From assembly GCA_000091205.1 (NCBI GenBank), contig AP006488.2: a stretch of 64,000 bases of DNA; one strand, 5' to 3'. A program made the position numbers and the translations under genes. Source of the stretch: Cyanidioschyzon merolae (Eukaryota). Below are positions 21,391-63,800 of the stretch, piece by piece. The notes under the pieces are model-generated. The model saw only the letters and a program-made list of their open reading frames with translations, made no database searches and was not told where the DNA came from. How positions within the stretch are numbered: position 1 is the stretch's first letter; every line of letters begins with the position of its first letter.

Positions 21391-22925
21391 AGAAAGTACA
21401 AAGAGTTGATTGGTAACTGCTATGCCGCTCCAAACTCACTCAGGTGCGTTATGGGGTACACTACGTAAACGAGTCGGTATGCGAGCGAACAACAGCGCGA
21501 GCGACTCAGTTTTCTCGATGCCAAAACGTTTAGATTGACCAAAGATCCCAGATTGCGGGATGCGTATTGATGATCGAAAAAGCGTCCACCATGCTGCAGC
21601 ACCCTACCTCCAAGTTCTATTTTTCGCACTTCCTTTCAGATATACTGGTTATTTCTTAGGTTCTGATTTGCACCTAACATGCCATGAGCACCCGTCCTGG
21701 CGCATATACCGCTGGTGCAGATGCATCACGGAGACGGAAAAGCTTTTCCAGCACCACCACTGAGGGCGTCGAATCGAGGAACGCTTCACCTGGTACGGAT
21801 TCGCAGTACATAGTCATGCTGAAGGCCTGCGAGCAGCGCAGACAGACCTACAGCCTGCGGCAGCGAGAAGCGGCATGCCAGGTGTCCACCGCGAACAGGG
21901 CGACGCTCAGAGGCGTCATACCCGCTGCGAGCTCCTGAATGAACTGCGTTGCGGACAAACTGCTCACATCTCACTACAGCATCCGTCAATTGCGGGGGCG
22001 GGAGGCGGGTATGCAGCGCTAGCCCGGGAGACTCGTTCAGCTCGCGGGACCTTCCGCTAGTACAGTGAACTTTTGACAATATGGAAACTTGTTCCCCATG
22101 TAACGTTTCTTGTGGTGGTGAAAAGAGATTCTAGTCTCGTTGCTATCTAGTGGTTAGTTTCTGTTCTTCTCTCTATAGAGCGGTCCGTACGTGCTCTCCG
22201 ATATCAGGAAGGTACGAAACGCGACGCGCATCTCGCCGTTACACATCAACGCTATCCTGATGATTAGCGTGTTTCTCTATCGTACAAGATGTGTTTCGGT
22301 TGAAGCCATAGCAAATTATCGTCTTTCGATTCAGCTGTGCTCCAGCCCTAGCATTAGCGTTTTCAAGTGCTTTTTCGTGGTTTATAGCAGAAGCGTTCGT
22401 AGCGGGTTCGTTTTCAAAAATAAAAAAAGAAAAGCCATGGGGAAGGAAATGGAGGATCCGGTAGGCTCGGCGCCGCCGATCGCCGAAAACAAAAACTAAA
22501 AACACTGCCAAGCCCAGAGGATCAAGACAAGGCGAATATGAAGAAATGGGAGGCTCGACCTCAAAAGCGACACAAAAGGCGACAGTACGACGAGAATGTA
22601 GTGAAAGCATTTCTTCTACTCAAGACCAAGAATCCCTACAAGCAGGAGTTGCGAAAGGCCATCAGAAACCGTGTCGCGTCGTACTCCATCAGTATCATTA
22701 AGGCTTCTTCAGGACTGATGCATAAGGTGAGCGAGACGTATCGCGACATCACGGACAGCAGAACAGTCGAGGTTCCGGGAGAATTCTTCAGCGAGGCCTT
22801 CATCAAGCACCTGCTACGTGGCACAGGGGAAACTTCGAGGAGAAATGAGCGAGTGTATGCCCTCCAGGAAAATTATATCGTCTAACGCTTGAACGGTACG
22901 ATATAAAGGTGAGCTCGAATTTTTA

Positions 22926-23100
22926 CATCTACGGGGCGGTGAAGTACACCACGAATCTGAAGAAACATTTGAGCATGAACCTAAAACGCTTCACGAAACG
23001 CTGCATCATATTTAAATCTACGGGGCGATGAAGTACACCACGAATATGAGGAACCATTTGACCATGAACCTCAAACGCATCATGAAACGCTCCATCTTTG
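22926..23100 (+). repeat. Tandem duplication of roughly 88 bp x2 inside A2, absent from A3.
   Basis: 'atctacggggcg(g/a)tgaagtacaccacgaat...' appears twice in tandem. A3 encodes this segment ('YTYGAMKYITNLKN') only once. Confidence 0.7.
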
Positions 23101-24599
23101 CGCTGTACCCGGACCTCTCACACAAAGGGAAATGGGCCACCATGAGTAGCATCACGAACGATCGACAGCATGAACAGGAGATCGAATTCGCCGGTGAGGA
23201 GGCATCGCCCAGTACCATGAATGAAGCTCCTGTGGTCCGTGCGGCTGTCCAAGAGCACCGCGGAGGTCTGGGGCTGGCCAATCCAGAAGAAAAGGTATCA
23301 GAGATGGAAAAAGATGCTATCCCCTGAACCTGCGGTATTTCGTGTTTTTGGAACGAAGAACTCGAACGCAAGGCGCATATGGATCTGGGCATGGAGGTAT
23401 GTTGAGAGTCTTTGAAACGGATGGCTGGGCTTCTGGAGAAGCGCTTCAACGTCGTTCCGTTATGAAAGATCATGTCGTACTGTGTCACAATCGATTCCAG
23501 AGTCCTTCATGGCATCATGAGGAAGATTTGTTCGTAGTTCGATTCAGGCAGGGAGAGGTTCACCGGCGAAACCGGGAGACTTGTCGGAAGAATATCTTTG
23601 ATTTCAAATGTCTTAAAAGGAGCACAAAAAATGTATTCAGGGGTACGATTGGGAGCGATGGACTACCCATACGTTTGCACTATCGGCGCTTGATGGCGGA
23701 TCGTACGACGCAGGAGGTGCAGAAGAACGACTTTGTCGTTGACGTGGATTCTGCGAAATCGAATGTCAAGACCACCGCAGCACCCAAGTGTGCGCAAGAT
23801 GGTATCGACGGCAACTTATGCCAGAAAGGCATGTGTCTTATAACGTTCGCGAGAGCGAGACACTAACGAGAATCAGGAATCATGAACATGAGGAAAAAAA
23901 GTGAGACTTCGAATACAGATGTGAAGAAGCACCTGGAAGTGATCAGCCAGGCCACTTGCCATGGAGCGGACTTGCAAGCCTCTGTAGCGTTCATGAAAAT
24001 TCGAGCTGCTCATAACGAGTTGCTGTGGGAAAAGTACTCAATGACCCGGCGAGTTCGCCAGCGTCTCAACCTGCACTACGGAAAGCAGCACGCACTTGCC
24101 AATTTCCTCCATGAGGTGAGCGCCCTCACGGAGTACATGAGTCTAAGCCTCCTAGCAGCATACGTAGCATGGCGCTTGGCCTTCCAAAAAAGGGATCATA
24201 CGCTCTCCATCGACGAGAGCGTACCAGGCGTGCGCACAGCGCGTTGTCACAATACCGATGGATGAGTTCCGAACGTCATGAATACAGCATGAGCTGGGAA
24301 GTACACTTCAGAGGGTCAAGACGGAATAGTGCCAGCGGAGCCCTGAGGATATTGAAAAAGCATGGAGCGCCGACAGAACAGGAAATGGCACGGAGGGCAA
24401 AAGTTCGAGGAATCCTTGCATTAGTGAGTGCAAGCGACAGCAAGAAACTGATGGAGTTTGCGAACCGGGACTTTAACGCCGCTATCAATATCAGACGATG
24501 TGCCGTGCCTGAGACGAGCGCCGAAGAGCTGAGACGATCCAACTTCATGGGCAGCCCCTCAAGGCGGATTTGTCGAAGAAGAAGTCGAAACCGATAGTA

Positions 24600-24705
24600 G
24601 GTGGCCGGTCGCAATAAGCCGGGAGGCGTCTGCACGTGGGCGGCCAGACATATGGTCTATGGCGAGCGGAGCCTAGCGCGCTGCTCGCCACCACCGTACA
24701 CCGCG
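24600..24705 (+). ncRNA. Candidate omega-RNA/fRNA scaffold: the conserved 3' tail of family A copy A2.
   Basis: 'ggccggtcgcaataagccgggaggcgtctgcacgtgg...ccaccaccgtacaccgc' is homologous to the A1 and A3 tails downstream of the TAG stop. Confidence 0.3.
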
Positions 24706-25568
24706 TGCAAACCTGCGCCGCTCGCAAGGCGTTCGTTGTTGACGGCCGTGGTCGAATCCGCAGAGGCATGCAACACCCCTCGATGATATGTCATCTGCAG
24801 GAGCAGCATCGTCGTACACAGTCGCATCGACGATAAATGAATCACCTGTTTGTCGGGAATGATGCGCTCTGAGGCGTTCATTTCCCTGACGCGTACCGAG
24901 CGCACCTGTTTCCCTTTGCGATACCGGACCAGGTTCAGTTCAAGCGAAAGCGACCCTGTACAGAGTACCGTTTGATCCCTCGGAAACTGGCCGCGTTTGC
25001 GCTCTCGGAAGAGACAGGTTCGATGATTCGTTTCTGTATCGTCTAGAAAAATCGATCCCGAGACCTGCGAATCACACCCAAGACCCTACTGAGTCCTGAA
25101 ATCGACGACGAAACGTACAGGAACACCGGTAGTGAGCGGCATCCGCTGGCGTCTGGTCAATTCTGGAAGCATACCAGGGAGCGCCTGTGCTAGCATCCAT
25201 ACATGCCCATATTGGATCCGATGCGCTAGCGTCACAATACGCGTCGTTTCCGATTCGGAGTTCCAGCTTTGAACATCGTGGATCACACTCGCGCTTCGGT
25301 GGTTTCCAGGGTTCTCGCCTGAAACGGCGCCGATGCAGCCGCACCGATGTCTTTCGATGCTCCTTCGAACAAGAATCATTTTTGAATATAATACTGGTGC
25401 TGTTTTTGTGTTGCTTATCGTGACCAAATCATCTGAGTGACATGCTCTGCCATGCGCGCTGCGCGCGCATCGAAATCGTCGATTATTCAATGCTGCATCA
25501 CGAACGCAGACCCGGCGCCATGTGTCGTAAGGAGGCGTCGCTGATCCACAAGCGCTGCACCTGGCGTA

Positions 25569-26444
25569 CTATCGAGCGCCCGCGTTTCCTGAGCCGAGTC
25601 TGAAGCCCTTCAATCGACGCCAATCACGTCGATTCATCTCGCTCAAGATCTCTCGCATCAGTTTATAAAACCTGGAATCGTGCTCTGCGTGCTCATTGTG
25701 CGCAAGCTCGTGTGCCAGTACTTCCCGAATAGCGTCATATCGGCGAAATCCGGCCAAATCATCGGTTCGCAATCGCAGATAAATCGCAGCACCGCGACCT
25801 TGATTCAGTCCAAGGACGCAAACCGGATCGACGCCGACTCGACCGTCAGGAGCCATTTCACAGAGTGCACCCACTCGCCAGTGCCATTTCTGCATAACGT
25901 AATTAACACCGGGATCTCTAGCCAGCTGTTCTAACAAAGAATGGGCCTGATGAGCATCGGCAAAGTTCCCGAGCACCCGAAGCTCGGAGAAGCCCCAACG
26001 CGAGCAGCTCCCAACCGGTGCGCGCGGATACAGCTCGCCATCGAACGGCCGAGCCGGACGCCGTCCAGGCCCGTCAAAATCCGCCGGCCGCACAAGCGGG
26101 TCTGGTCGAGCGAGTTGAACGCGCTCCAGTGCAAACGAAGCCGTGCCGATGACGCGAAGCGGTTGCTGCTTCTGAACAGCCGCGAGGAGCGCGTCCCCAG
26201 TGCGAAGAACACGTCCTTGTGCGATCAGTTTCACAGTTTCTCTGGCAAAGTTCCAAGCTGAAGCCACCTGCTCCCGCAACTCCTCGTAAAGAGCCTCTGG
26301 ATCGGCCGCAGACACCCGCAACACGCGGTCGTTCACCCGCACCTCCAGCGACGACGCAGCGTCTGTGCAGGGTGCCCTCAGCTCTGGACTGTCCCCGGAA
26401 GCTCCGGCACCATTCGTCCCTATCTGTGCCACAGCAGAGGTCAT
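25569..26444 (-). CDS. WLM-domain (Wss1-like) zinc metalloprotease.
   Basis: 'LAHELAHNEHAEHDSRFYKLMREI' matches the WLM HExxH...H...FY signature. ATG at 26444. Confidence 0.6.
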   Translation of the reverse strand: MTSAVAQIGTNGAGASGDSPELRAPCTDAASSLEVRVNDRVLRVSAADPEALYEELREQVASAWNFARETVKLIAQGRVLRTGDALLAAVQKQQPLRVIGTASFALERVQLARPDPLVRPADFDGPGRRPARPFDGELYPRAPVGSCSRWGFSELRVLGNFADAHQAHSLLEQLARDPGVNYVMQKWHWRVGALCEMAPDGRVGVDPVCVLGLNQGRGAAIYLRLRTDDLAGFRRYDAIREVLAHELAHNEHAEHDSRFYKLMREILSEMNRRDWRRLKGFRLGSGNAGAR

Positions 26445-27559: not shown

Positions 27560-28465
27560 GAAGCAGTTGCAAGAGCGCTCTGTGCGCGCTTACCCCCAGC
27601 ACTACATGTGCCTTTCTGCTACGGATGGGGCGCAAACGTGCATTCCGCAACAGGCGCAAGCCTACCATCCATTGCGGATGCGCGCATCAGGGGCGTGCGC
27701 AGCCCGCGCACTGGCGGTGCCTGCCAGCTCGGACGGCAGCATCCTCCGCGATGTACCCACAGTGGCTTCGTACGGAACAGATCCTCCACGTTACCTCCGG
27801 CGTATAAACTGAGGTTAGGGGCTATTCCTACCGCCACCAACGTAATGCGTATACAGACAGAAGATGCAAAATCAGTACATAACTTTACCACCAATACTCT
27901 TCGATTGCGGGCAACAGAGTCGCATGAATGGAAGACACCATTCTATTTAAAGCCACAGCAAAGAGAGATGTAAAGGAAGCAGTCACGGAACAAGCCCCGA
28001 GTGGCTGATGTTGATGAGCGTGTGCATCGCTGCGTCGAACACACGTGTGTATGCGCCTGTGGCGACGACACGTATCTGTCCAATTTGTGCAGATATGGAT
28101 CTATTGTGTACCATTCGGATACACGTCGCTATGTTCAAAAAGAGCCATATATACACTTTTTTCCCTAAAATAGCCGAAGTCGCCTCAGAACGATCGTGCG
28201 CCCGCTGGGCTTGTCCCGGGTGCCGACTCGGGAAGCAGCTTCGTGCACAGGCAAACATCGAAAAGCACGTGCTGCTGCTTCTGTACGGCTCCAGGCATAC
28301 GCTACACGCTTTTCTGCTCATAGACAGCGGAAGCGACAAGTTCGGTTACTGCCTTGAAGACTTAGACGCTTTAGAGAGACCATCATATCGATTGTTTCAG
28401 TTTTCTGACCTCCTCGTAACCACCACGCTCGCATCTCTGTTGCAACGGCACGCGCAGCAGCTCTC

Positions 28466-29446
28466 ATGGCAGCCAAAGCTGAACCCGGGCATCCAGAGAG
28501 TGGAAAGCTGCATCAAAGGTGGCGCAAAGCCAAGGAAGCCGGTAATCTGAGCACGTTTGCATCACCTGCAGAGCTGCGAGCACTCGTCCAAGCGAAACTG
28601 ACACCCGAGGAGCAAGTGCGTTTCGGGATGCAGTGTGCAGGGCTGGCAGCCAAGGCACTTGAGGTACTCGACAAGTCGCTTACATCTTTAGAGCAAGACA
28701 TTGAAAACGAGTCCTGTGACTGGGAAATAGAATCGGACGCTGCCATGGACCGTGTTGCCAGGCGATTCCTTGCCGATCTCGAACAGCTAAAGCAAACTGG
28801 CAGCGCGCGTCGACTCACCCAACTCAGTATTTGGCGTCGCATCAGTCGCTATGTCGTCCTGGCGGAAAGGCGAGCAGCGGAAGCGTCGCGCCAACGCGAG
28901 CATGAACTGCAGGCTGAAGGCAGTCCTTTTGTGAGGCAAGTCGCGAAGATCGCGGACCAGGCATCCAAGACTCCGGGATACCGCCAGGTCGTTGCCTGGG
29001 AGCATCTGGAAGAGCTTGCAGACGCGGCAACTGCAGATGGTGCATTCGGTTCGCAGTCGCGGTCGATGTCACGTATCTTACGTCGCCCAGAAAGTCGGTT
29101 TCGACTCTTGCTCACGAAACTAGAGCTTGGCGAGGAGCTCTGCACACCCGAGGAGCGGCGTTTGATGCTAGCATTGGATACCTCTGATGCGAGACTTGAA
29201 CCCGAACGCATGCGCTCGAGGAAGAGGGCACCTGGTGGAGCGCAGGATGGCGCCTCTGCAAAGCGCGACCACGGGAGGTCTGCATCCGTTTCGTCGTCGT
29301 CGTCGTCATCGTCGTCGTCGTTAGATCCAGAGCACGAGGACGACGTGCACCCAGCGGCCAAGAACGCGTCTTCCGTGAGAAAGAAAAGACGACATCACCG
29401 GCGACGATCATCCAATAAAAACGAAACACTGGAGAATCCTCAGTGA
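28466..29446 (+). CDS. Hypothetical coiled-coil protein with a poly-Ser tract.
   Basis: ORF with ATG at 28466. (TCG)n encodes 'SSSSSSSSSS' around 29290-29320. Confidence 0.55.
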   Translation: MAAKAEPGHPESGKLHQRWRKAKEAGNLSTFASPAELRALVQAKLTPEEQVRFGMQCAGLAAKALEVLDKSLTSLEQDIENESCDWEIESDAAMDRVARRFLADLEQLKQTGSARRLTQLSIWRRISRYVVLAERRAAEASRQREHELQAEGSPFVRQVAKIADQASKTPGYRQVVAWEHLEELADAATADGAFGSQSRSMSRILRRPESRFRLLLTKLELGEELCTPEERRLMLALDTSDARLEPERMRSRKRAPGGAQDGASAKRDHGRSASVSSSSSSSSSSLDPEHEDDVHPAAKNASSVRKKRRHHRRRSSNKNETLENPQ

Positions 29447-30440
29447 GCTAGCATTTGAGCGAGATTGCCGCTGAATCATCGCCGTGCCCTGGCCCTGTGG
29501 ATATCGCATGATGCCTCGTTTACAGCGGTTCAGTCATGATACTGGGTGGTGATTATCGCCGCCGGAATACCTCAGGACTAGACCGCGGATCGTTGGAGGC
29601 TACGCTCGCGTCCATCGCGTGTACCATGCGCTGCAAAAGTGGTGCTTGTCTGCAGCTCCACAAAGAGCACATGATCGCGTGCTGTGCTGCGAGCACCACG
29701 GCGCCGGCCTCTGTCGGCAAACGCGCTCAAAGGCGTACTCGCGACAAGCATGAATTCAGCAGGAATATTGGCGCTGGTTGAGGCACTACGACTGACTATC
29801 GAGAGACCAATCTCAGCAACCGCAGCATGCGTCGATCACTGGGGCGCAGCTTAAACTCCAGCATCGATGCGGCCGCGTCAGAGCCAGACCTGCAGACTAG
29901 TGGACAGAGCGCAGCATGCCTCATTCTGGATTTCGCAGAAGTACCCGCCAGAGACGCTTCTCATGGTAGCCAGTGGCGGATCGCGTCTATTTCGGTACCG
30001 GGAATTCGGACGGATTCCGCGTCCAGTCGACCGGGGACGGTTCACGCTCTCCACTCGGACGTCAACGCGTTTCAGTTTGGTGATGAAGGTGCTGCATTCA
30101 TCGACCGACCAGTCTGCATGACGATTCGACGAACATCGGGCGGAACCTTTGATGCATACCTCTGGAGCATGATTCGCAGAGGTGTACTTTTTTGCAGGTC
30201 GTCGAGGTGGAGCGTGTGGCGAGAGCCACATATTTGAGCGACCTCGCACCGGGCGTGATCCAAGACACCATTCGGCTGATGCTCAAGCGTGCCTCGCGTA
30301 CCCGACATGTCGTTGCTCACCTTCGTGATGCTGGTGTGCTTCTATGGGTAGCGTACTTGCGCTCGTTTGCGAAGCGTAGCGGACCTTGAGGACAAATGGC
30401 ACGCTCCAGCAGCCATGCGCTTGCATAGGTCATGCATTCA

Positions 30441-33128
30441 TCATGTGATGCTTTCCAAAGCAGCACCTAGGGCGTGGTCATCAAACACGTCGTGGAAATC
30501 CCAGAACTGCACATTCCAGCGGGGGTGGTAGCGCCGACACCAGCGCTCAAAACCCTGGATATATGCGGGTCGCAGGTGCGCATCCAAAGAGTTCCGAAAC
30601 GCCACCATGGACTCCTCGATGATCGAGGGATCCATGAGAATGCTCCCCGACAACGGATCCAGCATCACCTTGACCGGAACATGCTCATAACCCCAGAAAG
30701 GCAGTTTCGTCCCGATATCGCCGACCGCTGCCCATCGGAATGAAAACGGCACATGTCGCTGGAACGCTGCAGCGAAAGCGCGATTCCCGACTCGAGGCGA
30801 CCCAAAAGTCACACACATTACCAGATCCGATGACAGACGCAACGACTGTGAATTCTCAAAACACGTCATATCGAGGGCAGCGATGCTTGCCAGGGCCCCG
30901 CCGAGAGAGTGACCTCAAAAGATCACCGGTTTGTGGTTGCAAGATGCACTATCCAAGGAGTTCATCGCACTACACGGTTGCGCTTCGCTCGCATCTGCTG
31001 CTGCTGCTGCTGCTGCTGTAGCAGTTTCGCTTCGACACCGCGCTGCGGTCTCTGTACCCGCTAAGCTCAGCTGCTGTTGCTGCTGCCCGTGTTCACAACC
31101 GCCACGAATATCCGCACTGGACACCTCGGGAAAGCGGTTCGATGGTTGCACGCGCCTATCCAGGCTGGTAGCGACACCACAAGTGGTATCGCCGCAGGTG
31201 CTGCTCAAGGGCGCGCAAGCCGCATCCACTGCGGTTGGTGCAGTGCTCGAGGGCTCTGCAACAAGCGGTTTCAGCGTCTCCATTAACTCTTCATGCACGG
31301 ATAAATAGGCGTGCAAAAATCCACCGTGCACCATTGTAGGCACTCGTCGCCCTATGAGATACGAAAAATCCTCACCAGCCTGAGCGCGAAAATCACCAAA
31401 GCGCAGGGAACGGATCCCGCGTACGCTCAGCATATACTGCCACCATCGTCGATGTGCAAAACGGCCTCCAGGATCTAAACCGAGTTCCTGTGACAGGGCA
31501 TCATCAAGACCGCGCTCTATATGCGAATCGTCCTTGGCAAAGGCCTCCACTGATGCCTGGTGCTTCCTAGTCGAATCTATTTCGCGCTTGCTGTGTGTTG
31601 CGGGCGGTATTTGCGAACAAGTCGCAGCCGAGGTGCCGCTACGCCCGGCAGCCAAGGCAGTGGTGCTTACAGCATTCGTCGTACGAGGCATTCGAGTTGT
31701 ACCGTCGACCGTCGCTTTCGCCGGTGACTCCCGCAACGACCCGCGTTGACCGTGTTTGCTGCAGGCGCTCAAGCGCCACGTATCCTGTATTTGCGGACAT
31801 TCACGTGCATGCAGGTGCTCCTTGAGAGGAACCCGTCGGACATTCATATCTGTGCGTAAATTTCTGGTGCTTTTGGTACCGCGAAAGCTCACCACAATCC
31901 TATCCGCCAAGTCAATGACGAGCACATGTACATCTGTAACGGCGCTGGAGATATGCCGCACGACTCGTGCTTGCAGGGGGTCCATTTCGCCCACACCATA
32001 ATGATTGAACATCTCTGCATACATATGCGGGTCATGCCACGGTCGATAGGACAGGTACGCCATGTTGAAGATCAAAACATGCGTCTCGAGGACAAGTGAG
32101 CGCGAGAGCCAGCTGTCTCCATTTCGCAGTGCTTCCTGCTCTGTCTGGTAGTAGAGGTTTGCTTTGCGCAGCTCTCGCTCTGCATCCAGTGCGTCCGCTG
32201 GCCACGGTGCCGCCTGGCTGGCGCTGTGCGCGGACAACTCCCACTCGGAGGAAACGCTCCTTTGTGGGGCTCGCTTTTCTTGATATGCAGCTGGGTCCGG
32301 AGCCAGCGCAACGATCCAGGGCAGCCAAACACCCAGCACTGTCGGAGGTAAATGCACATAGAGCAGGAGCACCGATTATGTAAAGAGCATCGCGAAGGCA
32401 CCACCATTGAATCGTGCAATACCCAGCAACCGCAACGGTACGCCATCGAGGGACGCGTTCGCGCTTGGTAATGGTACCAGGCCCACTGCGATGGTATCGT
32501 TTGCAATCACGAATATATAGGATATCGCAGTAAAGACACGGTAGAAACGAGCACCCATTTGTTTGTGATGACAACAGGTATACGGCAGCTGCTGGAGCAC
32601 TCGGAAGGTGCGGTAGAGCTCCATGGCAATCCAGCCATCGAGGAAAATGCGCATGGTAACCACGAGCGCAAACGTAAGCGAGTAGGCCACTTGTTGTTGG
32701 TGTCCACGCATAGCAAACTGAACCAACATGCCCGGCCAGGTGAGTCCTAACGTCGTTCGAGACCAGCCGCAAATGGCTGTCTCCACGGCGGCGATGATCA
32801 AACAGAGACCAAATACCACGCGGTTTCGTTCTAGAAACGTGTGGCGATCCTTCATATCACGATAGAGTCGTAGAATAGCCATGGCGTGTCCATAAAAACC
32901 AAATATCCAGAACCATTGCCAGACCAGGTCGGAGACATAGAGAATGGCGATCGTGGTGCCGCTCGCTTCTCCGATATCGTTCGTGCAATTTTGCCTATCA
33001 TATTCATCGTAAAGAAAATAAATAGACCTTGTAGGAAGCAGCTGCGCATTTCGAAGGTGCGACGGATTCATCCATACCGATAGAGACGCAAAAAGTAGAC
33101 GATCGTGAAAGTAAGCTGGAGCACGCAA
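30441..33128 (-). pseudogene. Sn1-diacylglycerol-lipase-like gene: an N-terminal multi-TM domain followed by a class-3 lipase domain. One reading frame is interrupted by two in-frame stops, TAA at 32376-32378 and TGA at 30915-30917.
   Basis: Three collinear same-frame ORFs. 32376..33128 has 4-5 TM helices. 30915..32372 contains 'IVVSFRGT' and 'VHGGFLHAYLSV' (lipase_3 motifs) with long low-complexity inserts. 30441..30914 begins exactly with 'GHSLGGALASIAALD', the nucleophile elbow, and continues the lipase C-terminus. Confidence 0.55.
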
Positions 33129-34699
33129 AAGCAGTACACGACGACGCGGTCAACGAGGTTGCGTGCCGGGAGTGCCGCTTCGAAACGGCGTGCAAACAGA
33201 CTCATTGCTAGCGTGTAGGTGACGGAGAGCACGATTGCACTGCATAAGTTGAGAATTTGCCAAGTTACCTGCTTCGAGGATAGCGTCTCAAGGAGGAACT
33301 TGGCTTCCTTTGGATCGCTTCGATCTGTGGTGGAGCAAAGAAACCCGACAAACGACTGCGGTGACGTGCACTGCTTCGACGTGTGCGCGTGCCTCGTTCC
33401 TGTCCATTGATGAGTTCGCTGCTGCCTCTTAGCGTGCTGTCTCCAAATGTCTCCGACTCGAACGAGGAGACGGAGGTACCACGATCAGCCATGAGGGCAG
33501 CGTGCAAGCAGAATTAGAGTTGCATATTGTTCGGTACCCGTGCACTGCAGTGCAGAGTATACGGACCACGAAGCATGAATATGGCAAAGAAGGTTCGTTT
33601 TTATGTATGGAGCGGTGCGTATGCGCATACGCTCACACACGTTCACAAGCCCCAAGTCGGCTAGCTGAGGATTCCTGCACTGCACTGTACTGCACTGCCG
33701 TTCTTGGTCGTTCGAATTCTGTCCATCCAGAAACGCATCCCATGCGGACGCTCGAGACGCTCTCTGCTCACCAGCGCGACTCCATGAGGCTCCATTCCTG
33801 CTATGCATATTCGTATGCTATGTTGATGTGTATAGCAGAAGGTCGAGATGTAGAAGCAATGTGCTGTATAGATCGTAGACGAATAGAATGTTAGATATAT
33901 ATTCTTTACTGAACAGTGCAAGGTGGACTGCATTCCTCGTTCAGGTACGGTTCACCACAGTATTCAGATGGACGAGGAACACTGAAATAAAGAAGCAAGT
34001 ACATGCGATCCGCACCGAAACCAGATATACTCATAGCGTGCTTGCGTTCACTGGTAGAAAAACGACCCGTTGATTACTTTAGGGAAGGGGAAAGCGACGA
34101 TGATACCCATCACCTCTATCTGTTTTTCTCGCCAGCTAATTCGTGTGATCCTGAATGCACTGGCATACAGTCGCGATAAAGTCCTGGTTCATGCACAGCC
34201 GTCTTGTATCGAATTCGCAACGACAGCGTTCCCGGAACGTCCCGATCGGCACGAGGCACAGAGACGTAGCTCTGTCTTTTTCAGACGATGCGACTTTCTT
34301 TGGCCGAAATGGTCGGGGCGTACATGGGTAGTCGCGGGGATGGAGCCAGCTGTATGTATGATCGAACTTGATGAGAGCGAGGACATCATCAACTGTTTGA
34401 GCTGCAGTGGATTCATTTGGCGGCCGCAGTTTCGCTCAGAGGGAAGGCTCGTAGAACAGCACACACTGTACCGAATCATGGAAGAAATTTCCCCTGACGT
34501 CTGACGACGTCGTCCGGTTGTACGGCTTGGTATTTCACCATTCCCCTTGCGTTCGAATGTTTGCTGATTCGATCGGGGAATAGAGCTGCTTTTCATTCCT
34601 CGATATAATCCGTGGTTGAGCCCCGTAGAAAGTGTTTTCTCTATTGTGAGACGTTTTTAATGCTCAACGGGGCGAGTCGCTGAAGCGTTCAGCACACAT

Positions 34700-35210
34700 T
34701 GGTACCTGGCCACATTGCGTCCCTCGTCTGCAAGCCCTTTTTGCTCCGCTTAGCTCCTCATCTAACGGCATAAAGAAGCGCGCCATTTGAAGAAATAAGA
34801 AATCCAAGGGATGAGCTGCGGTGTACACTTCAGAACATCGAGATAGAGAGAAGGCAGCGGAGCGCTTCGCGCGATAGAAAAGTACGGAGAGCTGGCAGAG
34901 CAGCCAATGGTACTGAGTACTCGTGTTCTGGCAATCCTTGCATGGATGAGTTCAACAAGCGGCAATATATGCGAGGAGTTCGTGAAACGAGACTCCAACG
35001 TCACCTTCAGTATCTGACGATATGTAGTGCTGAAGAAGAGAACCGAGGAGCTGACGCGATACAGGTTTATGGGGCAGTCTCTCAGACTTGAAGTGCACAA
35101 GGAGAATCTGAGAACACGATACGAGTCTGCCGATCAAACAAGACTTGGAGGCGTCCTCGGATGGGTATTCATGCACCCCACATGATCGAGGAACTTTTTC
35201 GCTCCACTGA
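34700..35210 (+). mobile_element. Fanzor/TnpB-like family A fragment A4: a degenerate C-terminal region plus the tail.
   Basis: Plus-strand translation '...IEKYGELAEQPMVLSTRVLAILAWMSSTSGNICEEFVKRDSNVTFSI*...ENLRTRYESADQ' aligns to A1/A3 'EEIAKYGPL...KVRGLLALVSATSDGKKRMVLGNRDFNAATNVKRC...ESTRENF'. The tail 'aagacttggaggcgtcctcgga' matches 'aaggctgggaggcgtctgcacg'. Confidence 0.5.
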
Positions 35211-36507
35211 TTATATAAGCACGACTGCAGTCTATGGGAGAAGTATCTTCATGCTTTGTCGTTCGAATCATCTGCTGAGATCGTGCGAGTGAGCGGAGCT
35301 TCCATGGGAAGACGCGCGATACTACAGAGACCCCGGTGAAACGTCTAACGCTCTCCCATACGTCAGCGCATGCAACGTCTGTGTACGCCCGAGCGGTGTC
35401 TAAAGGTCAACGCTCCACGCTCCGAAACGCTTCGCTTCGTCTGCAAAGCCTCATGGGATGACGGAAGCTCCCTGATCATGGAACGGAGGCCTGGCTCTCC
35501 TGTTTTCTTCCAGTATCCTGGATCGAGTCGTGAACCCGACTCGTTATTGCGCTAAGCACTCGTGGATACACCGTGCCAAAGCTGCCGCCAAGTTGGTTCA
35601 TGTATACTCAGGGAAACAAGTCGATCATGTTCAGTTATAAAGAATGTCCCGTTTTCGCATGACGATCTCGTATCCTCGACTTGGAAAAGCACACGGAGCA
35701 AGTGCGCTGTGCTGATGGCTCAAGGCAGCGCTGCAAGCTCGTGTTCCGCACCTTTTGTACAGCGCGACGCGCTTTCATTTTAAAGAACGTGAGCGGGGCT
35801 CCTGATTTGTCCACAGTCTCACCTACAATCATCACCGCTTATCTGCCGCTTCAGGATCTGGAACGATCGACCTGCGCTCATCCTGCACGAGCAATTGTTT
35901 GCATCGTCTCCTAGACGTGAAACGGTGTCGCGGGAGCGTGTTACCGCCTGACGCCTTTCGTTCCCAGAAAACAAATCCGCGACTCCTGGACTTGCTCCCG
36001 AGAGGCTGTCAAAAGTTAATGATCGACGCTCTGGACTCACTGAAGCCGCTCAGCGGGTGGTCAAAGCGTCAGCCGCACAAAGCGCTCCCAAGGCTATGGT
36101 GCCTCAAACAGCATCATTCCCTAGGTACGTGTTCGAGAGAGCCAGACTTGAACGCGAGTTCTACGTTATCCTAAGAAGACGCTGTGGTGTGTCACAGACT
36201 TCAACGGCGGCGGCAACTAGCAGGGCGCAGCGATATATGGTAGGTCCCTCAGCGTTTGAGTGAAACTCACTCATCCTGACATTGTCAGACAAGTGCTCAC
36301 CACTGGTGGCCAACGCTCACGTAAAGCACCGCTCTCTTCTGTACACTGCTGAAAGTTAGCGTCCCAGACGCAACAAACAGCCGCGCTACCAACGAGAACG
36401 CTACTGAGGCCGTCGTGCCCCAGGCGCGACACACCCCGCGTACACGAGTACAACAGAGCAATGAGCCAGTGTCGCTCGCTGCTGCTTCGTTCCTGAATCT
36501 GCCTCGA

Positions 36508-38802
36508 ATGTGGCTGCAAGTTCGCGGTTTCCGAGAGGCTTCCTTCCGTCTGGGATATTCTCACAGCGCAAGCAGCTCCACTCTGTGGCCACCAGCCGAT
36601 TACCCCACGCTGAGGATCGCCTGGGACCTAGAGGCTTGGCTCCAGCAAGCGCTGGTTGCGGAGCCGCTGACGCCAGCGCTCGCTCTTCGCCCAGCAGACC
36701 GAGCTGCCTGGCAAGTCATCGACGACTGTGCTTTACTGAACGCTTACGGTTGGCTGTCACCGAGCTTCATAGAACGCGCGATCGCTGACCTGGAACGCTG
36801 GCTCTCAGCACTCGGGCGCGAAGTGCAAGAACCTCCGGGTACAGGACGTGGCCCGCACTTGCAGGTTGTACTCCTTGCACCGTCGTCTCACTATATTCAC
36901 TGGGGAGCACAACTACAGCACTTTCGAAAACAGGAGCATCAACAACGTCAAGCACTGGAAAAGGCATGGAACCTGCTAAAGATCGGAACCTCCACAGGAG
37001 ACCAGGCAGCGCTGCGAGCAGGCAAGCGACGTATGGCCGCTATCCAGCGCCTGGTCTATCCGCGCTCGGTTTGGTGGCAGTTACAGCAGGCCCTGTTGCA
37101 GCATGATTGGAAAGGGGCCCGACTTGACTTTTTGGACCCGGCCATAGACCTGGATGTGCCCGAGGTACCAACATGGCTGGTCGCTGCAGACCTCTACGCT
37201 GCAGGTCTGGTGGATGGGGTCTACGCTCCGCACCGAGAAGCGCTCGTTCTCGCCAATGCCCCTTGGGCGCTGCTTTTACTCCGAAACCGCCAAAAACTTC
37301 TCGAAAACGATCGATTTGTATCGTTGATCGACATTATAGCAGGCTGGCCCCTGGACTTTGGACGCTATGGTGCTTTAGCCTGTGCCATCAGTGGACTGGA
37401 TCCTTTCTGTCGACCACATTGGAGCATGGCAAGGAGTGGTGCGTCGTCCATGTCCTTTGAGGAGGCCATGGCACGAGCTCAGTCCATGTTGCTGAGCCAA
37501 CCTGATAACGATTCCACCGCACAGGCAAACGAGCATGTTGAAGATGAGCGTACCGCGCTGAAGTGTGTCACTTTCGTGATATCGGGGTCAGCGTCCATGT
37601 GGTCTCATACAGCACCCATGTCAGGCGAGCATCCCCGACGGCATGCTTTCGCTTTGGAAAGCGCTGCTCTGGAGTCGTCACCAGTGCCTGGCGAGAAAAC
37701 CGTCAGCGCGAACGTGCCAGGCACCGTCACCGCCGAGTCGTACGCGACGCTGACTCCAGGTCAAGCGCCGGACGTTGCACCCGAGGCATCCAGAGATGCA
37801 GCCGATACTTTTCCCACTCCAACGGCGGTGACGTCTTTCGGCGAGACATTGACCGGGACGCGTCTGAACGAGTCAACCCCGACTCGAGCTGGGTGCGAGC
37901 GCTGGACGGCGGACCCCGTTGTCACGCCAACAAGTGCCGGAGACGCATCCAACCAGGGCAAGCAACAGGCGACATCAAACAAACTGGGCGCAAGCTCACC
38001 CGTGACTACTCGGTCGTCCGTGGCAGAGACATCCCGCACGGACCCCGAACAGGAGGCACTGCGGTGGCATCAGCATATATGGCTCCCAGTGATCGATACA
38101 CCCTATCTCCGTCGCCTTTCTGAGCAGATACTCGGCTGGCGCAGGGCCAACGACACCCAAGGCAGCCTTAGTCTGTGGTTTCAACATCGTCGTTACACTT
38201 GGCAAGCGAGTCAGGGGCGTAGTTTGCGAGCAACGCTGTCGCAGTTGCCCCACTGGTTGCAGCGAGTTCTTGTCCGTGCTCGGTTGACGGATAAGGTGCC
38301 ACTTATCCAAGGACTGGAGAAACTCGTCCTCCCAAAAGCTGAGTCGAGCTCGGAAGTATCGACAGCGGTGCTGTTGTGGCCATGGGCGCTCTTATTGCTG
38401 TCACTTGCACTGGGCTGGTTTGCCACCGATGCGGATCACTGGCATGATCGAGTGGTTTGGTGGGTATCCCCAGATAGCGTTCTCGGGGGCGAAACGAACG
38501 CTTCGGCCTGGACCAATTACTTGGTGAAGAACTGGCCCCCGTTTCTCGCGGAGCAGATTGCAGCGAGTGAGATCATGAACTTGATCCTGGGTGTTGAGCT
38601 ACCCGGTCTGCATCTGGCATCCTGCCTGACCTTGGAAGTATACGCTCAACTTCGAGTCGCGTTCACAGAAAGCTACCGCAGTATTCGCTGCTATCTGGAC
38701 GAAGGCACGTGGCGAGCATTGGAGGCACTGCTGTCAGAAACGCTGAAGCCTGTGCAGAAACAAGCGCCTACTTCGGAGCATCACGCACAGCATGCGTTGT
38801 AA
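36508..38802 (+). CDS. Hypothetical protein, about 765 aa, with a C-terminal hydrophobic segment.
   Basis: Long ORF. The track start at 36415 is GTG; the first in-frame ATG is at 36508. No domain recognised. Confidence 0.55.
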   Translation: MWLQVRGFREASFRLGYSHSASSSTLWPPADYPTLRIAWDLEAWLQQALVAEPLTPALALRPADRAAWQVIDDCALLNAYGWLSPSFIERAIADLERWLSALGREVQEPPGTGRGPHLQVVLLAPSSHYIHWGAQLQHFRKQEHQQRQALEKAWNLLKIGTSTGDQAALRAGKRRMAAIQRLVYPRSVWWQLQQALLQHDWKGARLDFLDPAIDLDVPEVPTWLVAADLYAAGLVDGVYAPHREALVLANAPWALLLLRNRQKLLENDRFVSLIDIIAGWPLDFGRYGALACAISGLDPFCRPHWSMARSGASSMSFEEAMARAQSMLLSQPDNDSTAQANEHVEDERTALKCVTFVISGSASMWSHTAPMSGEHPRRHAFALESAALESSPVPGEKTVSANVPGTVTAESYATLTPGQAPDVAPEASRDAADTFPTPTAVTSFGETLTGTRLNESTPTRAGCERWTADPVVTPTSAGDASNQGKQQATSNKLGASSPVTTRSSVAETSRTDPEQEALRWHQHIWLPVIDTPYLRRLSEQILGWRRANDTQGSLSLWFQHRRYTWQASQGRSLRATLSQLPHWLQRVLVRARLTDKVPLIQGLEKLVLPKAESSSEVSTAVLLWPWALLLLSLALGWFATDADHWHDRVVWWVSPDSVLGGETNASAWTNYLVKNWPPFLAEQIAASEIMNLILGVELPGLHLASCLTLEVYAQLRVAFTESYRSIRCYLDEGTWRALEALLSETLKPVQKQAPTSEHHAQHAL

Positions 38803-57875: not shown

Positions 57876-58734
57876 ACTGCTTCCAAATTTCTATCATATA
57901 GTTAAACATGAAGAGGTGTCCAATGAAGTTCTCTCTTGTCGACTCTGGAGGTCTTTTCTCCAGCACCGCACATCTCCTTATATTGATTGCGGCATTAAAG
58001 TCTCGGTTCACAAACTCCATACGTTTCTTGCAATTGATTGTACTTCCTAATGCAAGTAGCCCTCGAACTTTCGCCCTCCTTTCCATTTGCTCGTCTGTCA
58101 GCGGTCCGTACTTTGCGATTTCCTCAGGGCTCCGTTGGCACTTTTCCATCTCGACCCTATGAAGTATACAGTCCAGTCCATGGTGTATATACGATGTTCG
58201 AAACTCATCTACAGGTATTGTAACAAAACGCCTTGCCCACTCCTTGTACGTTCTTGTCGTTGGAGCTGGCGTAGTCCATTTTTTGGGTCTTCTAGCGCCC
58301 TGCTCCGTACGCTTCTACTAGCCTCTGATTTTCATCCTCCTTCAGGGCACTCAACTGATTGAAAAAATTCGCGAACGCCCGCTGCTTCCCACAATACAAA
58401 TTCATTCGCAAACGAGCCCACGGGGGTTGGTATACTTCTCCCACAGCGCATCCCAATGCGCCATGCGAACTTTCATGAACTCCCGAAAAGCTTCAAAGTC
58501 CGCCCCTCGGCTCGTCACCTCGCTCAAAGCTTCCAGGTGATCCTTCGTTCCTGAATTCCATGTAACGATTTTCTTCCTCGCATTCATGGTGCCCGATTCC
58601 CGATTGTATCTCGCTCTCGAGAACCTCAAAAGACGCATGTCTTTCTGACGTAAGTTACCATCAGTCCCATCTTCCGCACACTTTGGTACAGAGATGGTTA
58701 TGATATTTGTATTCCCAGGGTCCGCGGCAACGAC

Positions 58735-59012
58735 AAAGTCGTTATCTTCCACTTTCTGGGTCGCAGGATCCGCCTCCTTCTTTTCTTCATCCTTCGCCGC
58801 GTCAAAGACAAAGTCGTTATCCTGCACTTTCTGGGTCGCAGGACCAGCCTCCTCCTCATCTTCATTCTTCGCCGCGTCAAACATAAAGTCGTTATCCTCC
58901 ACCTCCTGCGTCGCAGGACCAGCCTCCTCTTTGTTTTCTTCATGCATCGCCGTGCCAACGACAAGGTCGTTATCTCGCACCTCCTGCGTCGCAGGACCCG
59001 CCTTCTTCTCAT
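58735..59012 (-). repeat. In-frame 72 bp tandem repeat (4 units) inside the A3 ORF, encoding acidic 24-aa repeats.
   Basis: 'EEAGPATQEVEDNDFMFDAAKNEDE' appears 4 times; the last unit runs into the RuvC-I strand. A2 has a single copy. Confidence 0.8.
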
Positions 59013-60899
59013 CTTCATGGTTCGCCGAAGGCGGAACTGGCCGATCTTTCTTCAACCGCCGATAGTGTATACATAAGGCCACTCCATCGGTTTCGATCAC
59101 CCCCGTGAATACCTTTTGTTTGCTCACGTTGAGACGTTTGAAATCGAAGATACTCCTCCAGTACGTCTCCCGTTTTTCACCGGAGAATTACTCCCTGCTG
59201 ACATCGAACTCGGGACTGATCTCCCTCATGATGCCATGAAGGACTGCGGAGTCGGTAGTCACAAAATGTGACTTGATCTTGCACACTGGAACCACGTCGA
59301 AGCGCTTACCCATTCGGAAAGCCTTCCGTCTCTCCTACTCTTCATTTGTCTCTTCACTCAGCTTCATCTCTGCCTTGCGTTCGAACTCTCGCTCCAAAAA
59401 CACAAAATAGCGCACGATGAGGCGATAGTATCTTTCCTTACCTTTTTTTCAACACTGATATCTTTTCTGTTGGATTCGCCAGCCCCAGTACCGCACGGTG
59501 CTCTTGTATAACCGCGCGGATGACGGAGTCCTCATTTGTGCTCCTGCGTGACGTCTTCTTGTCGACGAATTCGACCTCACCTTCATGCTTGCGATCTTTC
59601 GTGATGCCATTGATAATCGCAAATTTTCCATTGCGAGACAGACCCGGGTAGAGTGCAAACACGGCGCGTATCATGAAACGTTCGAGGTTCGTTGTCAAAC
59701 GGTTCTTCAGGTTCGTAATGTACTTCATTGCCCCGTATGTGTAAATATCCTGGTCACCCTTGTATCGAGTACCATTGAAGCTGTAAAAGGGATGTTTTCC
59801 GTGGAGGGCATGCACCCGCTCATTTTCCATCCGCGCTTCCTTTGTACCAAGCATCAGCTGACGAATAAACTTCTTATCGAAAAACTCGTCTGGAATCTCG
59901 ACCGTTTCCATGTGCGTCACGTCGCGATACATCTCTCTCACCAAATGCATCAGTCCTGACGACGCCTTGACGATACTCTTGGAGTATGACGCAACACGTT
60001 TTTCGATAGCGTCTCGCAACTTTTCCCTGTAGGGATCCTTGATATGTCCAAGAAGAAAGGTTTTCACCACCATCTCGTTGTACAGCCGTCTTTCTTGCCG
60101 CCTTCGACGTAGGGCCTCTCCCTTTAGGTCCTTCTTCGCTTCCTTGTCTTCTGGACTCGGCACAGTTTTCGTTTTTTTCTGGTAGTCGGCGACCCTCGGC
60201 CTCCAGGATCGTCGACTTGCTTTTTCATAACTTTCCTTTTTTAGTTTTTTTTTGAAAAAGAAAGCTCCTGGAACGCTTCTGTTATATACTGCGAAAAAAC
60301 AATTGAATACACATGTTTGAGGTTTGAGACTCAAATGAACTGAAAACTATACTTGGCTATGAAGTTAACGAAAATACAACTTTTACATTAGAGCTACATG
60401 CTAGATATCAAGATCACGTTTTCCTTCGACGGCGGCATTTTTTTCATAAACAAAACGTTTCCTTTGGCCAGCGTTCTCCGACTATGCGCGTTTCTCTTTT
60501 CTTACTTTTTTGTGTTTTCCAATGTGCGGTGAAGTATCCATCAAACAGCCTACTTCCAAGTTCCATTACCTATACTTCTTCTAGGATATTCTGGTCGTTT
60601 CATACGTCCTATCGGGTGTGCCTCGTACCTGCCTTTCTGTATTCGCCTTTGCACCTTAAATGCTGGAGCAGATACCTCATAGAGACAGAACGGCGTTGCC
60701 GTACCACAGAGGGCGTCGGCTCAAGGCGTGGTTCACCCGACGTAGAATCGGGTGTCGTTGTCTGTTTGTGCTCGGACAGTCTGCGGATGCAGGCCTGTCT
60801 TCGCTGTACGACACGCTGGAGACACTTGGCTGTTAGGATAAATCGAGGGAGTCGCCTCCCTCCTTTGTGATCATGCATGGAATGCGTTGTCGTCGGTTG

Positions 60900-63800
60900 G
60901 CAATGCGGATTTGTGCTTGACACCCACCACAGTGGGTAGGCGCAGAAAGCGCACTGGCCCCGTGTTCGCATCCGATCCGCTGGACCTTCCGCCCAGAAGG
61001 TAGCATGTGAGTTTGTTCGCCATTAATGAGCGCTGAGGCTCCGTTAGCGGACCATCAGTTGCCAGTGCTGCACTCAAAGTGAGTGTCCGGCCTTCGCCTA
61101 TCACGGCGATGTCCAGCTGCTGCTGTCCTTCAAGGAGCTCGCTGCGCTCCTGTTTCCAGTGCGGGCACTATAAGCCTAAATATGTCAGCGTCTCGGGGGT
61201 CTGGTCTCCAGAGCAGGGACAGTGTGATTCCCAGTGCGATTCCGGTGTTTCCGTACGGCTTAGAGACGGTGCTAGTCAGAAACCACCAACGCGGATTTCG
61301 GCGATCCACTGGGTACCTCGAGCAAGTCCCGGGAATTCCAGCACCCACTACCAGTACTTGCATGTGTATGCTAGGGTGTAGTTCCGGATAGGGTCAAGCC
61401 GGCGTTACTTGCGCGACTGGTTCCATGTCTACATTCCCGTACTGTTGTTTGGACCGTTCGCTTCAGGCGACGGGAGAATTCTATATTTCTGGGGAACGAT
61501 TGGGTAGCGTGTTTTCGCGTAAGAGGCGCTTCAGCCAAATCTGCGCTGATTTCATCCAAGTGTTCTAGCGGTGCGTTGGGGTCTGCATGAAAATCCGACT
61601 GAACCAGGTGTACATGGTGGGCCCTTTGGCCCACACACGTGCCTGGCAGCCTGCTGCTATCGCTTCTATTGAGGGTATTTGGAGTTCAAGTCCGAGTGCC
61701 AGGCAGGTTGGTTGCTCTGCTCTGCATTGAGCATCCAACAGCAACAACGAGTCGCATTGCCCTGTTGGCGGCTATCTGCAGACGTGAGATATTTGTGTGG
61801 TTCATGCCGCACCATTCAGCACCCCAGGTCGCAGGCTGGATGATACACATCCTTAGCGCCCTGGTACGAATTGCTAAGGGGATAGAGGGGTCGGATGGGA
61901 ATGGGCGTGCGATCGCTGTACGTCTATGCATCTTGGCGATCATCTCGTCGATGTGTGCCTTTTCGTCGAGCGTCGGCGTGAGACAGACCCTGCAGATAGC
62001 GATATTTTTCCACGATTGGAATTTCCTGATTCTGCAACCGCCACGAGCGATTGCGAATGCTCTGCGAGTCTCCATGGATGAGCATGACGCCGCACTTCGA
62101 TGCTCCTACGTTCATCTTCCAGCGATCGACCCAGGTGCTGACTTGTTCCATGCTAGCCGCAAGCGTTTCCGGGGCGGATGCCAACAGCACGACATCGTCC
62201 GCAAGTAGAAGGCCTGCGAGGCGGTTCGTATGTGAGGGCTCCTCATCGGGCATCTCCACAGTCTATCCACGGCACCTCAAGCCCGTATTGTCTGCAGTTG
62301 TTCAGCAGATCGTTGATGAAGATGTTGAAAAGGAGCGGGGATGCGGGGTCGCTCTGTCGCAGTCCACGGCGGATTCTTATACGAGGGATTCATGAGCCGT
62401 CGCCCAGTCGGATGCGCATCCATGAGTCTGCATAGAGCGCCCGGAAGAATGCTAAGCACTTTTCGGAGACTCCGGCGCGTTCCATCTTGAGAAATAGAGC
62501 CTCATGCGGGACCGTGTCAAAGGCCTTTTGAAAGTCGATGAAGCATACATGAGGATCGGTGCGACCTCAACACTCCTACATACATCAGGGATGTATGCTT
62601 CTTCGAACATGCGTTGGATGAGCTCCAGAAGGCGTTTGCCCAGGATTCTGTCAGATTCATCTGGTATCGATGGTGTCCCTGTTGTCTCGTCTTTTGGGGT
62701 CGCCAGTTTCATCCACTCCGTCGCGATACCGTCGATGCCAGGTGTTTTGCGGTTGCTTGAGCATAGCAGGGTCCGAACAGATTCAGGCCAGAAGATTGGG
62801 TCGTTCCATACCGGTACCGGTTCGAGGCGCGGTAGTTCTGCAGCATATTGGTGCCGATAGATTCGGTTTTGGCAGTGCCCAGTTGCGTCTTCATGCAGCT
62901 CTGTCCCGTGGTCTGTGCAGGCCTCATTCACTGAGGCACTCTCCGTCCTCAGCGCTTCCTCATAAACGATTGGTGTGAGCCCCAGGCACTTTTTTGGTGG
63001 GTCAAGTCTCGATCGGATGTAGCGCCAGGTCTCATCTTCGTTGGTGCTCTCTAGCATAGATTTCGCCAGGGCGGCGATTTTGCGGCTTCGATCCTCTCGT
63101 TTGTCTTCTCTGGAAAGTTTCTTCTCTCTTTTGATAGCTTCCTCATGTTGTGCCTGTAGCGCCGGTAGCGCTGCCTTCGCTTCCATGTCTCCGGCGTTGG
63201 CGCGTATGGCGGTGCGGTTGACGATCTTATAGAGTCGGCGGTATTCATCAATCCGAGTTTTGGTACGTCGTTTCAGGAACTGAGGTTTGCAACTGTTGTG
63301 TTCTGGTCCAAGCAGTCCCAGCTCTCTGGCGGTCTTCTGATTCCCAGCTACAAACTCGCGTGCCAATTGGTCTAAAGATTTGCATGCACGGCTTTTCGGA
63401 TCTACAGCGCTGTGAGTAGGTGACTGGGTTTGGCGACGGCTTTCTTGAGTTCCTGCTCGGGTGCTCTTTCGGGGGATCACTCATGATGGGCTCGTTTGGG
63501 AGTTCTTCTTTCTATTCTTCTGTTTTTTTCTTGCTGGTCTTTTTCTTCTTCGGGCTCTTTCCTGAGCTGCATTCTCTGCTTATTTTGCATCTAGGTGGAT
63601 CATGAGGTTTCTGTGCCTCCTTCTCCGTATCCCGTTGGGTCTCTTTCGCTATTGTAGATCCCTCTATTGTTGTCTCTTCTTCGTTAATGTACTGATAATT
63701 CGTTATCTTTTCTCGGAAGGCTGCAAGTGACTTGTTGGTTAGCATCCGGGCTTGGTATGTTGAGGGTGCACTTGCTGGTAACCCTTGCTGTGCGCTCTGA

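Follow-up and report, generated by a model that had tools for sequence, protein, structure and literature searches.

A probable unitary pseudogene of a red-algal membrane-lipase gene on chromosome 6 of Cyanidioschyzon merolae 10D

The lipase locus between CMF026C and CMF030C

The DNA analysed here, a stretch of 64,000 nucleotides referred to below as the window, belongs to chromosome 6 of Cyanidioschyzon merolae 10D (536,163 bp; Nozaki et al, 2007, PMC1955436), and 14 of its open reading frames (ORFs) match annotated 10D proteins exactly. Between CMF026C (28466-29446, BAM79417) and CMF030C (36508-38799, BAM79418) lie the remains of a gene for a predicted membrane lipase, which occupy positions 30441..33492 on the minus strand, as do all gene features described below. 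The accessions of the two flanking genes are consecutive across this locus, which is therefore without an annotated protein. The tags CMF027-029 carry no protein either, a literature search on CMF027, CMF028, and CMF029 turned up no paper, and the remnant may explain part of the locus-tag gap between CMF026C and CMF030C.

Three minus-strand ORFs mark the locus, as the original prediction had stated. ORF1 (33128..32376, 250 aa) ends in a TAA at 32376-32378, ORF2 (32372..30915, 485 aa) ends in a TGA at 30915-30917, and ORF3 (30914..30441) comprises 157 codons. All three share one frame, and the coordinates of the two stops that split them were verified. The TGA is seen to directly precede the nucleophile elbow GHSLGG (30897..30914, Ser codon TCT at 30906-30908), with which ORF3 starts. 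Behind the TGA, the frame continues as GHSLGGALASIAALD up to a double TGA at 30441, formed by the ancestral stop TGA (30441..30443) and a second TGA after it. The same interruption splits the Pfam domain Lipase_3, of which profile positions 1-30 are found in ORF2 (17.7 bits) and positions 69-138 in ORF3 (59.1 bits, E 5.7e-16). A chance arrangement of ORFs is ruled out because intact orthologues align over the full length (E = 0).

A protein search revealed three clusters of homologues. The first, P0003/P0021, is the intact 963-aa protein CCYA01G0014 of Cyanidiococcus yangmingshanensis; the second, P0002/P0019, is an intact protein of 894 aa from a third cyanidiophyte (its records also give 964 aa); and the third, P0001, comprises 70 metagenome proteins with 96% identity to the query. 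In the comparison with related genomes suggested by the original prediction, the syntenic orthologues of Cyanidiococcus (locus L003) and of the third cyanidiophyte (locus L002) are both intact, flanked by the orthologues of CMF030C and CMF031C on one side and those of CMF026C, CMF025C, WLM, and TruB on the other. Judged by this gene order and by alignment, the 10D remnant is the positional orthologue of Cyanidiococcus CCYA01G0014.

The extent of the remnant follows from tblastn of P0003 in two frames, codon alignment with environmental alleles, and synteny with L002 and L003. In the tblastn comparison with the window, homology to P0003 begins ~120 codons upstream of the start proposed originally, in another frame, and this upstream part includes a further in-frame TGA. 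Alignment with ~98% identical environmental contigs places the ancestral gene between the ATG at 33492 and position 30441, giving ~1017 codons. Its start codon (33490..33492, MADRGTS...) is the point at which the environmental full-length ORFs P0012 and P0014 also begin. Thus, the continuous ~890-aa gene from 33128 that had been proposed is too short, as the gene reaches upstream to the ATG at 33492-33490.

Compared with the orthologues and with intact alleles, the 10D copy carries five lesions, namely three stop codons and two frameshifts. The two in-frame stops described originally are present as stated, but they represent only part of the damage, and three further lesions had been missed. 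Lesion 1, private to 10D in the alignment with contigs L001, L005, and L006, is a 1-nt deletion (33322..33323) that reduces TT to T in CAGATTCG. It shifts the frame at ~codon 57, and the reading from the ancestral ATG yields 75 aa, contained in an 80-aa ORF (33265..33507). Lesion 2 converts a TGG (Trp) to TGA (33068..33070) between the second and third transmembrane (TM) helices and is likewise 10D-private. Lesion 3 is a 2-nt insertion of GA (~32968..32970) that changes CGGAAGCG into CGGAGAAGCG and shifts the frame; it is also present in L001, L005, and L006 and absent from L017 and L018. Lesion 4, again 10D-private, is a tandem GG>AA change within the last TM helix, turning TGG (Trp) into TAA (32376..32378). 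Lesion 5 changes TGC (Cys) to TGA directly in front of GHSLGG (30915..30917) and is common to nine environmental contigs. At the stops of lesions 2, 4, and 5, Cyanidiococcus reads TGG, TGG, and TGC, and L002 reads CTG, TGG, and TGT. Exact look-ups of the ORF products found only in 10D (231 aa and 485 aa) gave no match, and the 142-aa C-terminal ORF product was matched in one Joint Genome Institute (JGI) contig only.

The last stop, at 30915-30917, bears on the active site. S809 (GHSLG), D872, and H919 are invariant in 68 red-algal homologues, and the latter two correspond to the presumed catalytic Asp codon at 30717..30719 (VGDIG) and the presumed catalytic His codon at 30576..30578 (LDAHLR). 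All three triad residues lie downstream of this TGA and would be missing from any product that ends there.

The common frame of the three ORFs might suggest a gene in which short in-frame introns or programmed frameshifts remove or bypass the interruptions, and a few spliceosomal introns do exist in C. merolae, although in only 0.5% of its genes (PMC1955436). In-frame introns, which the original prediction had listed as an option, are excluded by the alignment: every stop stands in place of a single conserved codon (Trp, Trp, and Cys), with no sequence inserted relative to orthologues or intact alleles, and the comparison with homologues revealed neither GT-AG-bounded extra sequence at the stops nor a length difference. 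The two frameshifts, moreover, amount to one nucleotide lost and two gained when set against alleles that are read without interruption, and it is not credible that a single gene should rely on five separate recoding events, each missing from close relatives. We consider the probability of such introns or frameshifting to be negligible.

Predicted architecture of the ancestral protein

Based on sequence and structure prediction, the ancestral protein is composed of ~8 TM helices followed by a class-3 (Lipase_3) lipase domain. The N-terminal multi-pass membrane domain (32349..33247) is delineated by hydropathy and by an AlphaFold2 model of the orthologue P0003, calculated from a 68-sequence alignment. 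The model reaches a mean predicted local distance difference test (pLDDT) score of 69, with 80-95 in the TM domain and 85-95 in the lipase core. Together with the hydropathy profile, it displays 7-8 hydrophobic helices, followed by the class-3 lipase domain with two long inserts that are predicted to be disordered (P0003 residues 566-666 and 720-797). The 4-5 TM segments of the original prediction are accordingly an undercount. Lipase_3 (PF01764) scores 83-84 bits in the orthologues, and both these values and that of ORF3 exceed the Pfam gathering cut-off of 22.

Fold comparison of the model against the Protein Data Bank (PDB) with Foldseek gave a clear result for the catalytic part. The matches include 1usw, 4tgl, and 6a0w (E 1e-5 to 2e-4), with target-normalised TM-scores of 0.56-0.63. 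Feruloyl esterase A and the Rhizomucor and Rhizopus lipases are among the proteins matched, and scores for class-3 lipase folds span 0.55-0.63. The membrane part matches weakly to G-protein-coupled receptors (GPCRs), including GPCR16 (9kpd_R, E 4.6e-3), and to human WLS (8tzr_B, E 5.3e-3), at target-normalised TM-scores of 0.32-0.43. Two red-algal homologues score 24.7-26.1 bits with the Wntless-like family PF06664, below its cut-off of 28.3, and the cyanidiophyte proteins gave no score with this family.

The protein resembles class-3 lipases (PF01764), such as Rhizomucor miehei lipase, Aspergillus feruloyl esterase A, and plant phospholipase A1 (PLA1), in its profile hidden Markov model (HMM) match, its GHSLGG/Asp/His residues, and its fold. 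It differs from them in the fused membrane domain of ~350 residues and the two disordered inserts, and the 10D copy is probably dead. The original prediction had assigned it the architecture of Sn1-specific diacylglycerol lipases (DAGLs). Indeed, DAGL-alpha and DAGL-beta are similar in general plan, with an N-terminal multi-pass anchor and, behind it, a Lipase_3 catalytic domain into which a loop is inserted. Comparison at the level of architecture reveals a difference in the membrane part, where the red-algal family has ~8 TM helices with weak resemblance to GPCR and Wntless folds and DAGL (DAGLB) has four (PMC9205912). The DAGL label is therefore a loose analogy rather than a statement of membership. 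Among the PDB matches listed by Foldseek for the P0003 model, no DAGL structure is present. Presumably, the residue before the elbow and the inserts of the red-algal family are also unlike those of DAGL.

The same full-length combination of TM and Lipase_3 domains occurs in red-algal proteins named "Lipase domain protein", from Chondrus crispus, Gracilaria domingensis, Pyropia vietnamensis, and Cyanidium caldarium (CDCA02G0808). Members of this family are 21-37% identical to the Cyanidiococcus orthologue and retain the motifs VSFxGT, HxGF, and GHSLGG as well as the Asp and the His. In contrast to 10D, their genes are intact; the residue in front of GHSLGG is Cys in Cyanidiophyceae and Thr in the others. 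A word-index profile search for homologues returned cyanidiophyte proteins only, and a HMMER search of representative sequences yielded distant homologues. No member of the family has been characterised, and we describe it by its sequence as a putative class-3 lipase.

Environmental alleles and the decay of the gene

Environmental contigs from hot-spring metagenomes that are ~98% identical to the 10D remnant form a graded series of intact, once-broken, and further-broken alleles. The TGA in front of GHSLGG is present in nine of them (L001, L004, L005, L006, L008, L009, L011, L017, and L018), while the Cys is kept as TGC in L007 and L010 and is also found in the proteins P0015 and P0016. L017 represents a full-length allele in which this TGA is the sole lesion in 1015 codons. 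L001, L005, and L006 combine the TGA with the GA insertion. L004 and L018 cover the gene partially and show no further lesion over the covered part. In L008, L009, and L011, which stem from three datasets, the match to the window ends at 31018, 2 bases upstream of a (GCA)n poly-Ala repeat (30996..31016) whose length varies among alleles, and L011 bears an additional 2-nt deletion at 30713-30712. In total, six of the nine environmental TGA contigs have a further lesion, and L017 is the only full-length one without.

Directly observed are the lesions, how they are distributed among alleles, the intactness of the syntenic orthologues, and the location of the catalytic triad. We interpret the locus, with a probability of roughly 93%, as a decaying non-processed (unitary) pseudogene of a conserved red-algal membrane-lipase gene. 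Pseudogenisation, one of the options of the original prediction, is thus borne out by the five disabling lesions in 10D, the graded alleles in relatives, and the intact syntenic orthologues. The 10D locus is most probably without function, and we infer that it is not translated.

Parsimony suggests as the most likely order that the TGA came first, then the GA insertion, and then the lineage-private lesions. In this sequence of events, a TGC>TGA nonsense change at the Cys codon just before GHSLGG would have inactivated the gene. Thereby freed from selection, the gene would have gathered further, presumably neutral lesions by drift, among them the GA insertion common to some wild relatives. Finally, in the 10D lineage alone, the 1-nt deletion, the TGG>TGA and TGG>TAA changes, and several amino-acid replacements at positions that the genera have conserved would have been added.

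The private lesions are also the point at which a sequencing or assembly error in the 10D reference has to be weighed. Under this reading, the living strain would have an intact gene, and its apparent lesions would be artefacts in part or entirely. The 1-nt deletion, the TGA at 33068-33070, and the TAA at 32376-32378 are found in the window only, and the deletion falls in a TT dinucleotide. However, independent metagenome assemblies made from several samples contain the TGA in front of GHSLGG and the GA insertion, so that the gene is broken even if none of the private lesions is genuine. For these two lesions, the artefact considered in the original prediction is refuted. The private lesions, in turn, are surrounded by ~20 other private substitutions in 3 kb, whereas six neighbouring coding sequences (CDS) are free of indels. 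Further, the TGG>TAA change is a double substitution, atypical of base-calling error, and the 10D genome has been reported as finished and 100%-complete (PMC1955436). An error that leaves the living strain with an intact gene is very unlikely.

The pattern of divergence distinguishes the remnant from the genes around it. Between 10D and the environmental contigs, the remnant diverges by 1.18-1.35%, with indels, and the six neighbouring CDS by 0.60-0.65%, with zero indels in 5955 bp (remnant versus CDS, Fisher p = 0.015). The remnant thus evolves at ~2x the substitution rate of the neighbouring CDS and is statistically indistinguishable from non-coding DNA, which diverges by 0.84-0.94% (p = 0.23). 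By eye, at least nine 10D-private missense changes are derived at residues common to both outgroups, for example HDGF>HGGF. A RIP-like (repeat-induced point mutation) or other mutational signature was rejected, as in our own reading the 10D-private substitutions display no excess of G>A or C>T. In comparisons between genera, the ratio of non-synonymous to synonymous substitution (dN/dS, omega) is ~0.08-0.11, with saturated dS; within this limit, the gene is under purifying selection between genera, as judged by codon comparison.

Several observations weigh against gene loss. For 10D versus the environmental alleles, omega amounts to 0.6-0.87 in the remnant and 0.42-0.68 in the pooled neighbours; this overlap is not decisive, as dN/dS at shallow divergence is no proof of relaxed constraint, and given too few substitutions and likewise high values in neighbouring hypothetical genes, we did not use it as proof. 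Most TGA alleles have retained an open 157-codon ORF past the stop, and by our own count its polymorphism amounts to ~9 non-synonymous to 9 synonymous changes. We attribute this to the youth of the alleles and to recombination between haplotypes, and not to continued translation. Finally, the three 10D-private lesions are known from the reference sequence only, and the look-ups of the 10D-specific ORF products gave no match.

Some additional features of the environmental sequences concern the structure of the alleles. Within 30441-31018, several haplotype backgrounds carry the TGA allele, and TGA and Cys alleles have variants at codons 896, 930, and 992 in common. This suggests exchange between haplotypes in natural Cyanidioschyzon populations, by recombination or gene conversion, unless the mutations arose repeatedly; the occurrence of the TGA on several backgrounds hints at recombination. 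In L008 (1-3004), and also in L009 and L011, only the last ~190 lipase codons are left, and they directly adjoin an unrelated gene of 976 aa at its 5' end. This gene is present nowhere in the window, and the junction represents a structural rearrangement. The environmental protein P0011, encoded on a contig of 3414 nt, lacks the GA insertion and, after "GDATC", ends in "DDCLQWCTVDFCTPIYPCVKS". This tail resembles an out-of-frame copy of the RRVPTMVHGGFLHAYLSV region, suggesting duplication, rearrangement, or chimeric assembly.

The abundance of the TGA among the environmental DNA contigs, where it is commoner than Cys (9 versus 2), invites a further explanation, namely that the codon encodes selenocysteine (Sec) or is read through. 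L017-type alleles would then be functional, only the later lesions would be pseudogenising, and 10D would have decayed afterwards. The TGA stands where the orthologues and some nearly identical alleles have a Cys codon, a classic Sec/Cys pair as known from eukaryotic selenoprotein genes, and in L017 it is the sole lesion in 1015 codons. The host also provides a context, as C. merolae has kept tRNA-Sec, SBP2, EFsec, SecS, and SPS2 although no selenoprotein was found, which led Lobanov et al. (2007) to propose a lineage-specific selenoprotein or an unusual Sec insertion sequence (SECIS) element (PMC2375036). If the explanation held, the lipase would be this lineage-specific selenoprotein and would account for the kept tRNA-Sec and most of the Sec machinery.

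In contrast to eukaryotic selenoprotein genes, the locus has no recognisable SECIS element, no conserved redox Cys, and an ORF that is otherwise broken in 10D. The Rfam SECIS search (E <= 10) gave no match in window positions 28000-34500 or in L017, L004, and L007, and our own loose structural (kink-turn) scan of 29300-30920 found none. The residue is Thr in >90% of the 68 red-algal homologues and Cys in Cyanidiophyceae only; the site is therefore not a redox Cys. Moreover, the Sec machinery was described from 10D itself, in which four other lesions, two of them stops at Trp codons, lie upstream of the TGA, and the ORF is otherwise intact across the TGA only in the environmental allele L017. 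The further lesions in six of the nine environmental TGA contigs and the nature of TGC>TGA as a single-base nonsense change add to this. PSTK is reported missing in C. merolae (PMC6627142), and no selenoproteins or SECIS elements were found there (PMC6627142, PMC7539508). Consequently, a Sec or read-through codon is extremely unlikely, and the case cautions against taking the TGA/Cys pair for the missing C. merolae selenoprotein.

As a unitary pseudogene, the 10D locus is ordinary and previously unannotated and requires no new mechanism. It shares with unitary pseudogenes and segregating loss-of-function alleles the single-copy state, the ancestral syntenic position, the nonsense and frameshift damage, and the intact orthologues in sister lineages, and with segregating loss-of-function alleles also the coexistence of null and intact alleles in wild relatives. 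It does not differ from known unitary pseudogenes in kind; particular to it are the host genome of only 4775 genes and the legibility of the stepwise alleles in public metagenomes. The reference genome of this minimal-eukaryote model thereby gains a probable unannotated pseudogene. A conserved red-algal membrane lipase would be in the course of being lost in the C. merolae lineage, providing an example of reductive genome evolution with stages visible in hot-spring metagenomes.

Repeats and other features of the window

The spacer between the pseudogene and CMF030C (33493-36400) is free of ORFs over 3 kb, while the equivalent spacer in Cyanidiococcus (L003) measures ~1 kb. With a divergence of 1.5-2.2% from the environmental contigs, it varies more than any other stretch compared. 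Scans of the whole window for tRNAs and against Rfam gave no match.

The statement that every other gene in the window is intact holds for the 14 ORFs checked, but the window also contains unannotated, fragmented, repeat-like ORFs. One such region, 21400-25560 between TruB and WLM, extends over ~4.2 kb without an annotated protein; the corresponding gap in L002 is ~1.6 kb. It carries plus-strand ORF fragments in different frames (23342-23866, 23882-24265, and 24169-24597), the last of which contains "FANRDFNAAINIRRCAV". We take this stretch to be reminiscent of the RuvC-III motif of TnpB/Fanzor. No Pfam match was obtained for the ORF fragments at 23-24.6 kb and 57-63.5 kb.

Three environmental contigs, L004, L007, and L012, parallel the window as far down as 28258 and then continue with sequence that is 75-84% similar to window positions 25-312 and 58112-58873. 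This continuation is indicative of a family of interspersed repeats and of a difference in synteny beside CMF026C. Additionally, the minus-strand ORF 58402-59127 and the ORF 23342-23866 have a "DG..L.IHYRRL" stretch in common. An interspersed element with a truncated ORF has been described in 253 copies (Nozaki et al, PMC1955436). The terminal part of the window, 58001-64000, displays an AT skew of -0.17 to -0.28, and at 58-60 kb a GC skew of -0.20, unlike the rest of the window; this skewed region coincides with the minus-strand repeat-like ORFs.

Two neighbours of the pseudogene differ from the other genes nearby. CMF026C (28466-29446), a hypothetical protein with poly-Ser and basic tails, is 93.5% identical to its counterpart in L007, with 38 gap columns, and is much more variable than the other neighbours. 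The intact WLM-domain gene (25569-26444) shows 8-9.5 non-synonymous versus 1-2.5 synonymous changes between 10D and four environmental contigs, corresponding to an omega of 1.2-2.8, which is based on small numbers but makes this gene an outlier among its neighbours.

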